IMG/VR virus record: IMGVR_UViG_2778261706_000026
From: a virus
Taxonomy: Duplodnaviria; Heunggongvirae; Uroviricota; Caudoviricetes
Direction: 5' to 3' (one strand)
DNA length: 4,529 bases
The position numbers were made by a program, and so were the translations under genes. Shown here one piece after another: positions 1-4,529 of this stretch (within the stretch, counting starts at the first letter, position 1; every line of letters begins with the position of its first letter). Below the pieces are notes generated by a model. That model saw only the letters and a list, made by a program, of their open reading frames with translations, had not been told where the DNA came from and ran no database searches.

Positions 1-1119
1 TCAAATAACCAACTTAACCCATTCCTGACCTCGAGTATCGTTATAGCGATCGGTGGTTGCCTGGACTTTATGTCCTAGTAATGTTTTTGTATCGATACCC
101 TGTGCACGGTACAGCCGTTCTGATAGAGAGCGTTGTTCATGAAATGTTGGCGGAGTTTTTCCTGCTGGTGGAATTACCCCAGCCAGATCCCGTGCTTTGG
201 CAAAGTAGTCGCTCAGGTTGTCTTTACTCATCGGCTTCGGTTGTTTCTGGTGCCGACTATGGATTAGATATGGACTTAATATTCTGTCTCGGCACCCATC
301 AATAACTTCTTTTAACGTTATCCCAATGGCATCACAGCGTAGTGTAAGCGGTAACGCCAGACGCATTCCGGTTTTTCCCTGGGTGATATGCAAGTGTTCG
401 TTCCACACATCTGAAAAACGCATGTGGCAAATGTCATCACGGCGCTGACCAGTAACAATCGCAAGAAGCATTGCGTTACGGATAAAGTGTTTTTCAGGCG
501 TTGCATTGTAAATTTTTTGCCAGTCTTCCATGGTGAGCCTGGCTCTGGTTACTTTAGGGATCGGTTTACGGGTAGCCTCCGGAGGATTCCATCCAGGAGG
601 AACTTCCCCTGCATGCTGTGCTTCTTTATAAATATCAACCCATAATCCACGATTTACTCTCGCTGTACTGACCATGTCTTTATCCAGCCACTCATCCAGT
701 ATTAATGCAAAGTCTCTTACTTCCAGTTCTTTCAATGGGTGGTTTCCCAGACGGGAAACCAGGTATGCAGCCATTCGAGTTTTTTCTTTGTGAGTTGTAG
801 CTGCAATATCTCCATTTTTCAGTCGCGTGTCCTGTATTTTCAGATATCGATCAACCCATGCCTTTAATCTGATACCCCGACGTTTTGTTGCTGACGGACT
901 TTCATCAATTTTGCGCATGAAATATTCAGCTTCTGCTGCAGCTATTCGCTGATTGGCTGTGGAAGCGATTTTTTCTGCCTTACCTTTGTCTGTTCCGAGT
1001 CCGTGAAATTTTCCAGTCACAGGATTTTTATACTGGTAGTAAACTCTGCCAGTTCTGCGATCAAACTTTTCGTAAAGACCGGCTACGTCAGTGCTGTTTT
1101 TTCGTGGCCTCGGTGACAT
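1..1119 (-). CDS. int: Tyrosine site-specific integrase, lambda Int family (prophage integrase)
   Basis: Complete 372-aa minus-strand ORF (ATG at 1119-1117, TGA stop at 3-1). Translation carries the lambda-Int-type catalytic box (AIVTGQRRDD, TFHEQRSLSERLY, LLGHK...TDRY) and aligns by eye with lambda Int along its length. AAGGAG sits 10 nt upstream of the ATG, inside the xis coding region. The 3' end at the window edge implies attL lies just left of the window. Confidence 0.95.
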   Translation of the reverse strand: MSPRPRKNSTDVAGLYEKFDRRTGRVYYQYKNPVTGKFHGLGTDKGKAEKIASTANQRIAAAEAEYFMRKIDESPSATKRRGIRLKAWVDRYLKIQDTRLKNGDIAATTHKEKTRMAAYLVSRLGNHPLKELEVRDFALILDEWLDKDMVSTARVNRGLWVDIYKEAQHAGEVPPGWNPPEATRKPIPKVTRARLTMEDWQKIYNATPEKHFIRNAMLLAIVTGQRRDDICHMRFSDVWNEHLHITQGKTGMRLALPLTLRCDAIGITLKEVIDGCRDRILSPYLIHSRHQKQPKPMSKDNLSDYFAKARDLAGVIPPAGKTPPTFHEQRSLSERLYRAQGIDTKTLLGHKVQATTDRYNDTRGQEWVKLVI

Positions 1120-1357
1120 GAGTTAAAATCTCCTTCAGTGCATCATCATCGCCAGTATGAATTTCCGGCGCAATTCCCGTTTCACCAGGCCCAACAAATA
1201 CTGCTCGGCGATCTATCAGCCAACGCCCACGAATTTTTTGTGGTCTTGGAACGATGTATCCTAGTTTTCCGTATTTCACCAGGGTAGTGTTTGTTATTGG
1301 GAGACTGAACCGTTTTGGTTTCCACTCGTCGAGCGTTATCAGGTACTGTTCGCTCAT
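1088..1357 (-). CDS. xis: Excisionase (lambda Xis-like)
   Basis: Minus-strand ORF immediately upstream of int, overlapping its start by 32 nt. N-terminus MSEQYLITLDEW resembles the lambda Xis YLTLQEW motif, and the later PRPQKIRGRWLIDRRAV resembles lambda PPPVKDGREYLFHESAV. ATG at 1357 is preceded by GGAG about 9 nt upstream; the ORF-track start at 1366 is a GTG three codons further up. Confidence 0.85.
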   Translation of the reverse strand: MSEQYLITLDEWKPKRFSLPITNTTLVKYGKLGYIVPRPQKIRGRWLIDRRAVFVGPGETGIAPEIHTGDDDALKEILTHVTEATKKQH

Positions 1358-1375
1358 GGCTATCACTCCGGAACG

Positions 1376-1407
1376 CGCCAGTTGCAGAATATCAACGACA
1401 ACTGGCG
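1376..1407. repeat. Perfect 9-bp inverted repeat (CGCCAGTTG / CAACTGGCG) with 14-nt loop, between exonuclease stop and xis start
   Basis: Read directly: CGCCAGTTG at 1376-1384 and its reverse complement CAACTGGCG at 1399-1407. No U-run follows on either strand, so it is not a canonical intrinsic terminator; it may be an RNA stem-loop or a protein-binding palindrome. Confidence 0.5.
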
Positions 1408-1418
1408 ACGGTTGAACA

Positions 1419-1856
1419 TTAAAAATCAGCCTGACTCGGGATCAGTTTTTGCCAGATAACTGAAACGTATTTTGCCTGGTAACGGGCGTCATCAAGTGCA
1501 TTATGGCGCTCACCTTCGAATGGAATAGCCGTTCTGGCATCGAAGTCTATGGCTTTCCCCAGCTCAACGATTGTGCGTACATCGCGATCGTTGTAGTAAC
1601 GCCACGGGCAGGGGATCCCCTGCCGTTCGTATGAACGGCGCAAAATCGTGTTGTCGAAGTTGGCTCCATTTCCCCAGACCTGAACAAAAAATTCACCGGA
1701 GTTTTCGTCGATAAATTCCCGCAATTGTAACAGTGCATCATCTAACGGGATTTCATCGGTCATAATGGCAGATTGCGCTTCGCGTGATTGCTTAAGCCAC
1801 CATTTAATGGTGTCCCTCGCCGTGTGCTTTCGTGTTGTGTGCCTGCTTTTTACCAC
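1419..1856 (-). CDS. DnaQ/DEDDh-like 3'-5' exonuclease, apparently N-terminally truncated (possible pseudogene)
   Basis: Translation contains an Exo II-like motif (FFVQVWGNGANFD) and an Exo III-like motif (HNALDDARYQAKY), but no N-terminal Exo I (DxE) motif. The first in-frame start is a GTG and the first 13 codons (MVKSRHTTRKHTA) look non-homologous. The frame is closed by TAA at 1902-1904 on the minus strand. The internal ATG at 1763 has no Shine-Dalgarno. Confidence 0.55.
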   Translation of the reverse strand: MVKSRHTTRKHTARDTIKWWLKQSREAQSAIMTDEIPLDDALLQLREFIDENSGEFFVQVWGNGANFDNTILRRSYERQGIPCPWRYYNDRDVRTIVELGKAIDFDARTAIPFEGERHNALDDARYQAKYVSVIWQKLIPSQADF

Positions 1857-1880
1857 GTCAGGCGAGGTGGTCCCCGTTAT

Positions 1881-1926
1881 TCCCCAACAACAAGGATCTT
1901 GTTAATCTGGATATCCCCAACAACAA
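1881..1926 (+). repeat. Perfect 13-bp direct repeat TCCCCAACAACAA (1881-1893 and 1914-1926)
   Basis: Read directly from sequence. The second copy lies inside the left inverted repeat of the cassette; the first lies 5 bp upstream of the flanking TTGTTAA direct repeat. Confidence 0.7.
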
Positions 1927-1929
1927 TAA
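1906..1929 (+). repeat. Left terminal inverted repeat of cassette (11 bp perfect, about 24 bp imperfect)
   Basis: TCTGGATATCC at 1906-1916 is the exact reverse complement of 2471-2481; contains the 8-bp palindrome GGATATCC. Confidence 0.6.
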
Positions 1930-1940
1930 GAGTATTGAAT

Positions 1941-2456
1941 GTGATCGCTGAATTAACGGCAGCAATGACGGCTATTCGTGAAACCGCCCAGATTGCAAAA
2001 CTAATGAACGAGGCAAAAACTCAAGCTGAAGTAAATGCGGCTATTGGTGAACTGAACTCAAAGCTTGCATCTATTCAGCGCGAATGCGTGTCTCTCGTTG
2101 AGCTGGTGGGCACTTATCAAGAAATAAATGCTTCTCTCAAAGCTAAAATTGCAGAATTTGAAAACTTTGAGGCTCAGACGGAAGGTTATATCCTTAGCCA
2201 ACTTGAGTCGGGAACTTTTGTGTACTCGAAGGAGGTAACCGTGAACGGCGGCAGCATAATCATGCATCTTTGTCCAAAATGTTTTGGACAAAAGATAGTA
2301 TCGATACTTCAGCCATTCCCGGTTAGAGAATATGAATTTTTTCATAAAAGCAGGTGCCTGTACTGTGAAAATCAGTTTCTTATGAATAAAAATCCGGATT
2401 ACGTATCACCTCCATCTATTGAAGAGTTGGCCAGAAAACTGAACGGCAATCTGTAG
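1941..2456 (+). CDS. Hypothetical protein: predicted N-terminal helical/coiled-coil region plus C-terminal four-cysteine zinc-ribbon-like motif (CPKC-x24-CLYC); cargo of the TIR-bounded cassette
   Basis: Long plus-strand ORF ending TAG at 2454-2456, opposite in orientation to all neighbouring prophage genes. Start is uncertain: GTG 1941 (AAGAG about 8 nt upstream), ATG 1965 or ATG 2004. The ORF-track N-terminal extension from 1788 is R/P-rich, overlaps the exonuclease remnant and the left repeat, and is rejected. The protein has only one Asp and no DDE or HUH motif, so it is unlikely to be a transposase. Confidence 0.6.
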   Translation: MIAELTAAMTAIRETAQIAKLMNEAKTQAEVNAAIGELNSKLASIQRECVSLVELVGTYQEINASLKAKIAEFENFEAQTEGYILSQLESGTFVYSKEVTVNGGSIIMHLCPKCFGQKIVSILQPFPVREYEFFHKSRCLYCENQFLMNKNPDYVSPPSIEELARKLNGNL

Positions 2457-2457
2457 A

Positions 2458-2481
2458 TTTTTACTGTTATGGATATCCAGA
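2458..2481 (-). repeat. Right terminal inverted repeat of cassette
   Basis: GGATATCCAGA at 2471-2481 is the reverse complement of 1906-1916; the imperfect inner extension begins 2 bp after the cargo ORF stop codon (2454-2456). Confidence 0.6.
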
Positions 2482-2570
2482 TTGTTAAAGAGCATGCCGG
2501 ATGCTTGCTTGTGTCCGGCGCGTGTGCACCACTCTCCCCCCGTGGAGGATTCCTTAATTACCAGATTTCA

Positions 2571-2723
2571 TTAGTCAGAGTTTCTTGCTAACCAGCGACG
2601 CGCGCCAGATTCGGTTTTAAACGTTTTGCTTTTGGTATACGTCATCGCGGTGAACGTGCCGTCCTGGTTGGGAAACACGCCGCACACCAGAGATTCGTTG
2701 TTGCCAAGATCAAGAGTATCCAT
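2571..2723 (-). CDS. Small Rac-prophage-type protein (YdaG-like, about 50 aa)
   Basis: Minus-strand ORF ending TAA at 2571-2573. Internal ATG at 2723 has a good SD (GAGG 5 nt upstream). The ORF-track start at 2801 adds 26 residues with weaker SD spacing. It sits immediately downstream of the racR-like gene, as ydaG does in Rac; my recollection of the YdaG sequence is weak. Confidence 0.55.
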   Translation of the reverse strand: MDTLDLGNNESLVCGVFPNQDGTFTAMTYTKSKTFKTESGARRWLARNSD

Positions 2724-2875
2724 GCTGACCTCATATCCCCTTAACGCCGGGGTAGCGGAACAAAAACCTGCTGCATAGTTAAAGTTGAACCCTGCCGTCA
2801 TGTTCTTACGCCTCGGGCTGGCTACTTAATCCCTGACCACTGCCGGGTAACTCTAGGTATTGCCCTGTATTGTGT

Positions 2876-2898
2876 GGGACGGGATGGGTTGGTATGGG
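2876..2898 (+). other. G-quadruplex-type motif GGGacGGGatGGGttggtatGGG on plus strand
   Basis: Four GGG tracts with loops of 2, 2 and 7 nt, read directly. It lies on the template strand just downstream of the predicted leftward promoter. Confidence 0.35.
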
Positions 2899-2901
2899 AA
2901 A

Positions 2902-2930
2902 ACTATAGGAAATGCCTAATTGCTTGTCAA
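2902..2930 (-). promoter_or_regulatory. Near-consensus sigma70 promoter, leftward (PL-like): -35 TTGACA, 17-nt spacer, -10 TATAGT
   Basis: Minus-strand reading TTGACAagcaattaggcatttccTATAGT (rc of 2902-2930). The spacer contains an ATTAGGC operator half-site (plus-strand GCCTAAT at 2914-2920). Oriented toward the ydaG-like gene. Confidence 0.55.
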
Positions 2931-2943
2931 TAGGCTACGCCTA
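2931..2943. promoter_or_regulatory. Operator-like palindrome TAGGC-tac-GCCTA immediately upstream of the PL-like -35
   Basis: Same TAGGC-N3-GCCTA architecture as the three palindromes between the racR-like and ydaS-like genes. A related CCTAaTAGG palindrome lies at 2959-2967. Confidence 0.5.
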
Positions 2944-3002
2944 ATGATTTGGGTGCGACCTAATAGGTGATGGTTTGTGGGAGAGGTAGTAGGAGTTAAC
3001 TA

Positions 3003-3024
3003 ACGGGAACTAGGAATTTCCCGT
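3003..3024 (-). terminator. Weak stem-loop (7-bp stem ACGGGAA/TTCCCGT, 8-nt loop) just downstream of the racR-like stop
   Basis: Inverted repeat read directly; there is no clear U-tract after it on the minus strand, so terminator function is doubtful. Confidence 0.2.
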
Positions 3025-3038
3025 CGGACCATATAAGT

Positions 3039-3515
3039 TTAAGTTCCTGTCTTGGTGATGTTCTGGCTTTTCCGTTTTGATTCTTGATTTTTCAGATAGT
3101 TAGCTACCTTCATTTCCATTGCGGCAATGTAGGCACGAACGTCATGATCAACCCAACTAGGCTCCGTAGCATTTCCAGATAAGAGGAAAGCCACAATTGC
3201 TCTTTTTTCATCAGAGGCGGCTTGATAAAGGCTGTTTATGTCTAAAAGTTCACTTTTTGTATCTGAAGTGGATGGGGTTGGTATGGGGTATTCGTTAAGC
3301 CCCCAATGCTCTGGACCAACCACATCAGAAAAGAAACGCCATAGTTCTGGAAGTTTGTCTTTACTTATCGAACCTTTCTTAATCCAGTCATGGATTGATG
3401 GTGGTTGGACTTTGAAATGACGTGCGATTTCCGCCTTTGATTTGACGGCTCCTGATGCAATTTTTTTGTTAATGGCCTGCTCTATCGCTCGGCCTAAGTC
3501 TTTACCACTAAGCAT
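3039..3515 (-). CDS. racR: HTH-type prophage repressor, RacR-like (158 aa)
   Basis: Complete minus-strand ORF with an N-terminal helix-turn-helix (KAEIARHFKVQPPSIHDWIKKGSI). Divergent from a Cro/YdaS-like gene across an operator-rich intergenic region. Length and context match RacR of the Rac prophage as I recall it. No obvious S24 peptidase/autocleavage domain. SD GGAGA about 9 nt upstream of ATG at 3515. Confidence 0.85.
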   Translation of the reverse strand: MLSGKDLGRAIEQAINKKIASGAVKSKAEIARHFKVQPPSIHDWIKKGSISKDKLPELWRFFSDVVGPEHWGLNEYPIPTPSTSDTKSELLDINSLYQAASDEKRAIVAFLLSGNATEPSWVDHDVRAYIAAMEMKVANYLKNQESKRKSQNITKTGT

Positions 3516-3544
3516 TGCTTAATAGTCTCCTATGCGCATCGCAT

Positions 3545-3557
3545 TAGGCAATGCCTA
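3545..3557. promoter_or_regulatory. Operator palindrome 1: TAGGC-aat-GCCTA
   Basis: Perfect 5-3-5 palindrome read directly; the closest of the three to the racR-like start. Confidence 0.55.
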
Positions 3558-3569
3558 CTCTCGAAGTGT

Positions 3570-3582
3570 TAGGCATAGCCTA
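3570..3582. promoter_or_regulatory. Operator palindrome 2: TAGGC-ata-GCCTA
   Basis: Perfect 5-3-5 palindrome; centre 25 bp from operator 1; abuts the -35 of the rightward promoter. Confidence 0.55.
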
Positions 3583-3612
3583 TTGACAATTGCATTAGGC
3601 TAAGCCTAATAT
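3583..3612 (+). promoter_or_regulatory. Near-consensus sigma70 promoter, rightward (PR-like): -35 TTGACA (3583-3588), 18-nt spacer, -10 TAATAT (3607-3612)
   Basis: Read directly. The predicted transcript start is about 20 nt upstream of the GGAG SD (3628-3631) and the ATG at 3640. The spacer shares the gcaATTAGGC element with the PL-like promoter. Confidence 0.6.
3596..3608. promoter_or_regulatory. Operator palindrome 3: TAGGC-taa-GCCTA (extends to the 17-bp palindrome ATTAGGCtaaGCCTAAT, 3594-3610)
   Basis: Perfect palindrome; centre 26 bp from operator 2; overlaps the spacer and -10 of the rightward promoter. Confidence 0.6.
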
Positions 3613-3639
3613 TATTGTGTGTTTTTTGGAGTTCATTCG

Positions 3640-3779
3640 ATGAAAAAAGATAACTATTCATTCAAACGAGCTTGTGCTGTTGTCGGTGGGCAATCAGCAA
3701 TGGCTAGGCTTTTAGGTGTATCTCCTCCAAGCGTAAATCAATGGATCAAAGGTGTACGTCAGTTGCCTGCTGAGAGATG
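3640..3779 (+). pseudogene. ydaS: Cro/YdaS-like HTH regulator, interrupted after codon 47 by an IS3-family insertion
   Basis: ATG at 3640 with GGAG 8 nt upstream. Translation MKKDNYSFKRACAVVGGQSAMARLLGVSPPSVNQWIKGVRQLPAERC matches my recollection of the N-terminal half of Rac YdaS. From 3780 the frame reads into the IS terminal repeat (EPPRVSWRVFYL) and stops at 3817-3819. Confidence 0.7.

Positions 3780-4529
<750 letters not shown>

Follow-up and report, generated by a model that had tools for sequence, protein, structure and literature searches.

What is the open reading frame (ORF) at 1419–1856 of this prophage: a complete small gene, or the remainder of a larger one? The window, by which we mean the whole stretch of 4,529 nucleotides analysed here, is the left end of a potC-adjacent lambdoid prophage and is 99.97–100% identical to Escherichia coli O157:H7 EDL933 over positions 1–3780. 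The ORF lies on the minus strand, starts with GTG and has 145 codons. The next gene downstream, in the same leftward series, is the excisionase gene xis (1088–1366, minus strand; Pfam Exc, 'excisionase' in RefSeq), followed by the integrase gene of this potC-side prophage (1–1119, minus strand; RefSeq annotation in EDL933). On its other side the ORF has as its neighbour a plus-strand cassette gene for a protein of 171 residues (1941–2456), beyond which are a DUF1391 gene (2571–2801, minus strand), racR (3039–3515, minus strand) and a ydaS-like gene (plus strand) cut at 3780/3781 by a copy of IS1203/IS629. A near-consensus sigma-70 promoter, TTGACA-17-TATAGT (11 of 12 positions), is present at 2902–2930 on the minus strand and is directed left toward the DUF1391 gene. 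It is surrounded by GCCTAAT/ATTAGGC motifs that recur in the racR–ydaS intergenic region (3530–3610), and together these elements are probably the early-left promoter with RacR operators.

The ORF product matches the Pfam family PF16473 (Rv2179c-like) with 159.1 bits, against a gathering cut-off of 27. The match covers only profile positions 47–177 of 177, not the complete domain (1–177). Both Exo II (NxxxFD), WGNGANFD (encoded at 1676–1653, ORF residues 61–68), and Exo III (H-x4-D), HNALDDARYQAKY (encoded at 1505–1467, with HNALDD at residues 118–123), are present and are invariant in an alignment with three full-length relatives. Exo I, the DxE motif, which supplies two of the four acidic residues that bind metal, is absent from the ORF, in agreement with what the first-pass annotation had read from the sequence. 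The remnant is predicted to have no 3′–5′ exonuclease activity because Exo I is missing. Of the four DEDD metal ligands the fragment has only two, and the N-terminal quarter is missing from its domain; judging from what is established for DEDDh exonucleases, it would be non-functional, inactive and probably unable to fold.

Longer homologues place the ORF at the end of a much larger gene. Intact versions encode 813–825 residues (WP_000102136.1, 813; WP_000102189.1, 814; WP_000048562.1, 823; WP_000048362.1, 825) and are found at 5001–7442 of L006 (the potC prophage of strain AR_0137, with an intact 813-residue gene), at 1685–4129 of L004 (a potC prophage of O113:H21) and at 3137–5608 of L008 (the rspB prophage of O55:H7 DEC5D). 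The order int, xis, exonuclease is the same in L004, L005 and L006. In full-length relatives the N-terminus matches PF06630 (Exonuc_VIII) and the C-terminus contains PF16473 in full (positions 1–177 or 2–177), the DEDDh domain being the last ~180–200 residues. Alignment of the ORF with them, the check that had been proposed, shows where homology is lost. As had been suspected, the 13 residues at the start (M1–A13) have no counterpart in the full-length relatives and homology runs from R14. From there the 132 residues of the remnant are identical to the C-terminus of WP_000102136.1, so that 132 of 813 residues are kept and 681 codons (residues 1–681) are gone. In L006 and L004 the parent Exo I, MIDLETMG, precedes the junction residue by 46 residues, with IDLET at residues 635–639 of the 813-residue relative, and a DxE motif is present in all four long forms that were translated. 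The proposal that the gene had lost its 5′ end is thereby borne out: relatives with an intact 813–825-residue gene exist, and similarity to them ends at position 1816. The parent itself had been pictured as a short, stand-alone Rv2179c-like exonuclease. It is instead a multidomain gene, and the loss goes far beyond ~45 codons.

What truly survives of the prophage exonuclease gene, its 3′ end, thus occupies 1419–1816 (minus strand), as placed by the end of the L006 alignment at 1816, the Pfam match and RefSeq. It takes in two of the three bases of codon R14 and everything up to F145, with the stop at 1421–1419. What precedes it, at 1817–1856 (minus strand), is a fortuitous 5′ extension of non-exonuclease DNA whose counterpart lies upstream of dicB in undeleted relatives. 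The extension supplies the GTG (1856–1854), 12 unrelated codons and the first base of codon R14. The upstream frame is indeed closed: a stop codon lies 16 codons ahead of the GTG. Neither this GTG, at 1856, nor the ATG at 1763 is preceded by a Shine-Dalgarno-like sequence. RefSeq already annotates 1419–1820 as a pseudogene ("3′-5′ exonuclease; incomplete; missing N-terminus").

We considered whether the short ORF might nevertheless be complete in itself and functional, encoding a small protein such as a regulatory or nucleic-acid-binding piece of the DEDDh fold. It is open over 145 codons and perfectly conserved in 267 genomes, although conservation inside a recently expanded clone is uninformative. 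The protein family phrog_8783 (114 residues) matches ORF residues 32–145 from end to end, which would suggest a short form in its own right. As a genuine short family, however, phrog_8783 was rejected by an exact-sequence look-up and a search of phage collections. In the look-up, the 114- and 145-residue proteins occurred only as E. coli gene calls (for instance in O157:H7 K5806 and Xuzhou21), and their clusters were full of "partial" fragments from contig ends. Full-length homologues that begin at the equivalent of residue 1 or 32 and lack a DxE motif had been named as the finding that would mark the gene as intact; only gene calls of the remnant and contig-end partials answered to that description. 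The short 114/145-residue form is an annotation artefact of the remnant. The missing Exo I ligands and first 46 profile positions, the want of a Shine-Dalgarno sequence at both the GTG and the internal ATG, and the near-identity of the DNA up to the junction with the interior of the long genes all argue against a small functional gene, and we give that idea almost no credence. The remnant is an ordinary pseudogene, already known and marked as such in RefSeq.

The point at which the parent gene ends could be fixed to the base. Similarity is lost or gained at 1816|1817 in six independent comparators, which puts the deletion junction (1815–1817, assigned to neither strand; flank comparison) inside the interval 1815–1860 predicted for it. 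The left arm, 1–1816, is 99.8% identical to L006, and the alignment stops exactly at 1816, as it also does against L002, L004 and L005. In a search of phage collections, 19 of the 19 records that reach the end of the left arm stop matching at 1816, and the junction was absent from all phage records. The right arm was found at 99.07% identity in L008 (window 1815–2889; 100% over 1817–2460), where it begins at L008 position 6499/6501, and at 94.5% in L004 (window 1817–2894), from position 5001. Identity of 93–100% between the flanks and their relatives, over lengths of 1.8 kb and 1.07 kb, is far beyond chance.

In these undeleted relatives the two flanks are separated. Window positions 1816 and 1817 correspond to 2082 and 5001 in L004, where the blocks are 2,918 bp apart, and to 3534 and 6501 in L008, where they are 2,966 bp apart. 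Homology stops abruptly inside a protein domain, and the flanks are found 2.9–3.0 kb apart in relatives, which is the pattern of a deletion-derived pseudogene and supports the original suggestion of a deletion or replacement. The counterparts of 1817–1856 (L004 5001–5040; L008 6501–6540) lie ~405–425 bp upstream of dicB and, in undeleted relatives, 124 bp upstream of the cassette ORF. The DNA at 1817–1871 (no strand assigned) is the surviving end of a conserved stretch upstream of dicB and is 96% identical to positions 4001–4055 of L003, the BL21 prophage. Undeleted relatives align straight across the equivalent of 1816/1817 (L004 4491–5054 with L003 3486–4054) and part only at the equivalent of 1870. 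Because similarity among them crosses this point, the right breakpoint is a real deletion end, not a module boundary. Neither repeats nor microhomology account for the junction: no repeat brackets it, and the shared sequence amounts to 0 bp with L004 as the right-hand parent and 2 bp (CC, 1815–1816) with L008.

The interval between the flanks in L004 and L008 holds the 5′ part of the exonuclease gene, a DUF1482 (ydfD-like) gene, dicB and ~405–425 bp upstream of dicB. The window has kept the xis–int side of the parent gene's setting, and the DUF1482 and dicB genes are missing. The DNA for the RecE-like N-terminal region (PF06630) is likewise absent from the window, homology ending at 1816. The block proposed in the first-pass annotation as missing, recET-kilR-sieB, does not correspond to these losses, which are the exonuclease 5′ end, the DUF1482/ydfD-like gene and dicB. 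The slot upstream of dicB is occupied by DicF in L002, L003, L005 and L006. In the window, Rfam searches at the gathering threshold and at E values up to 0.1 found no DicF, and no STnc100-like RNA was found there. STnc100 is a Salmonella sRNA family, and a sub-threshold match to it (33–34 bits; gathering threshold 47) fills the slot in L004 (4563–4780) and L008 (6044–6267), where a different small RNA may take the place of DicF. Because L004 and L008, the relatives that share the cassette, carry the STnc100-like match instead, we make no claim that the deletion took DicF itself.

Close to the junction is a second discontinuity, the mosaic boundary at ~1871, from which the cargo differs between prophages: L006 has ydfC there, BL21 has other small genes, and the window has the 171-residue gene. 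That gene (GTG at 1941) belongs to phrog_1244 and has no Pfam or NCBIfam family. It is bracketed by an imperfect 26-nt inverted repeat (1904–1929 and 2458–2483) and preceded by a 13-nt direct repeat, TCCCCAACAACAA, at 1881–1893 and 1914–1926. Its slot and orientation match those of sieB in Rac, and it seems to be one of several genes that serve as alternative cargo at a prophage hotspot. The same cassette sits beside an intact exonuclease gene and dicB in both L004 (O113:H21) and L008 (O55:H7). Because undeleted prophages carry the same cassette and the junction is 54 bp from the mosaic boundary, the truncation is an event separate from the cassette, as had been surmised.

How the two flanks came together can be approached through their closest relatives, which differ. 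L006 shares 99.8% identity with the left arm and L008 only 86.6%, while the right arm finds its best match, at 99.07%, in L008. Such a pattern would be expected from an illegitimate exchange between prophages, in which a potC-type phage, L006-like on the left, was joined to early-region DNA of a resident prophage resembling the rspB one of O55:H7. O55:H7 DEC5D fits this scheme in having the right-arm DNA at rspB and an empty potB–potC site, and the rspA/rspB-site prophage of O157:H7 differs from that of O55:H7 and is truncated relative to it. On the other hand, lambdoid prophages are mosaic anyway, and homologous exchange inside the interval now deleted could unite an L006-like exonuclease gene with an L008-like cassette; L004, moreover, is an existing undeleted potC prophage with exonuclease gene, DUF1482, dicB and the same cassette. 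We regard the exchange as unlikely, though it deserves weighing, and for the exonuclease gene the outcome of exchange or deletion is identical.

The search for an ancestor bears on the same question. The DEC5D genome (L010 41035–44846) has no prophage at potB–potC and an identical cassette region in its rspB-site prophage, so that O55:H7 DEC5D was rejected as the holder of an undeleted ancestor at the same site. This arrangement hints at prophage reshuffling between the potB–potC and rspB sites during the O55-to-O157 transition. The O157:H7 rspA/rspB-site prophage was also tried as donor of the right arm; being a different, truncated element, it gave an uninformative result. Among the relatives compared, none was both undeleted and nearly identical to the window on the left and the right arm alike, and a single-step deletion in situ is for that reason the simplest history, not a demonstrated one.

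An insertion sequence offers another route to such a junction. IS1203/IS629 is abundant in O157:H7 genomes (21–40 places per record), deletions driven by IS excision are known in O157, and one copy lies 2 kb away in the window, at 3780/3781. An adjacent deletion or enhancer-assisted excision by IS629/IS1203, with later loss of the element, would account for a junction microhomology of only 0–2 bp. Yet 1816|1817 shows neither the remains of an IS nor an inverted repeat or a target-site duplication, and the nearby insertion is far younger than the deletion. A 40-mer over its junction (3780/3781) occurs in 0 of 5,426 complete E. coli genomes, for which reason we take the insertion to be strain-specific and recent. 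We consider an IS origin of the 1816|1817 junction improbable. The copy in the window (3780–4529) breaks the ydaS-like helix-turn-helix gene, and the same gene is intact in EDL933.

The reading we favour, with high confidence, is that the ORF is the non-functional scar of a 2.9–3.0 kb loss from the prophage exonuclease gene region. The ancestral prophage would have had, in leftward order, the immunity region, the DUF1391 gene, variable cargo, a small-RNA slot, dicB, a DUF1482/ydfD-like gene, the 813–825-residue exonuclease gene, xis and int. A single illegitimate joining with 0–2 bp of microhomology would then have taken out ~2.9–3.0 kb, with one end of the deletion at codon 682 of the exonuclease gene and the other ~405–425 bp upstream of dicB. 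It would have removed the RecE-like N-terminal region and the first 46 positions of the DEDDh profile, including the Asp and Glu of Exo I. Also removed would have been dicB, which encodes a cell-division inhibitor, along with the small-RNA slot upstream of it and the ydfD-like gene. The ORF would be visible only through a chance in-frame GTG, lacking a ribosome-binding site, ahead of the 132 surviving codons.

The 3′ 398 bases of the ORF are present in ~4,070 of 5,426 complete E. coli genomes, and in undeleted genomes the match ends at or before 1816; long forms of the exonuclease occur in more than 4,000 genomes, and about 75% of complete E. coli genomes have the parent gene class. The junction itself, traced with a 40-mer placed symmetrically across it, was found in 267 of the 5,426, in every case with at least 99% identity. 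The named carriers among the matches listed are all O157:H7 or O157 (EDL933, TW14359, Xuzhou21, 86-24 and ATCC 43888). As the junction is identical in all 267 carrier genomes, we infer from this sequence comparison that the deletion predates the spread of O157:H7.

The closest known counterparts of the remnant are the full-length exonucleases of Qin-like and potC lambdoid prophages. It is 86% identical to an 814-residue protein of this group over the aligned residues and holds the same position directly upstream of xis–int, but lacks their PF06630 region, the beginning of their DEDDh domain, where Exo I lies, and a long acidic/zinc-ribbon-like linker. In the Rac prophage of E. coli K-12, RecE (exonuclease VIII) shares its N-terminal two-thirds with the parent gene, at 59% identity between parent residues 58–615 and RecE residues 50–591, and the parent sits in the same early-left place, between kil-type genes and xis–int. 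In contrast, no counterpart of the RecE C-terminal domain was found in the parent, whose last 200 residues are instead the DEDDh 3′–5′ domain; no recT follows the parent gene, and no RecE-like part is left in the window. The parent class thus joins a RecE-like N-terminal region to a DEDDh 3′–5′ exonuclease and has no recT partner. A literature search returned no paper naming Rv2179c-like prophage exonucleases and no experimental study of the parent gene.

At the level of the domain, the full-length parent aligns from Exo I onward with PDB 8KEL, a solved 'Exodeoxyribonuclease' of 227 residues that we take to be phage T4 DexA. The remnant begins at the equivalent of its residue ~62, without Exo I and the N-terminal part of the fold. 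Relative to PF16473 DEDDh exonucleases as a whole it retains Exo II, Exo III and the C-terminal three-quarters of the domain.

Other copies of the gene have also decayed. The Qin-like prophage of BL21 carries an 'exonuclease VIII, missing C-terminus', in which the N-terminal end is kept, whereas the window keeps the C-terminal end; BL21 also retains ydfD, dicB and DicF, a block lost entirely from the window. In strain 2009C_3996 the same prophage gene is split by IS600. The BL21 and 2009C_3996 copies are independent inactivations, by deletion or IS insertion, and decay of this prophage exonuclease gene is commonplace. Exo VIII-type recombination genes are reported to be intact in only one of seven O157 Sakai prophages (Asadulghani et al. 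2009, PMC2669165).

One could ask whether the loss was kept for a benefit: removal of a host-toxic block of dicB, the ydfD-like gene and the small RNA, with the remnant made at a low level and interfering with, or binding the partners of, intact paralogous exonucleases of other O157 prophages. We think this very doubtful; if it were true, the deletion would amount to a taming of the prophage. As one more decayed gene in the well-documented pool of defective prophages of O157:H7, the remnant is of little importance in itself, and its junction, 1816|1817, serves as a clean lineage marker. The biologically more notable consequence is that the same event took dicB and its neighbours, leaving the prophage without its cell-division-inhibitor block.
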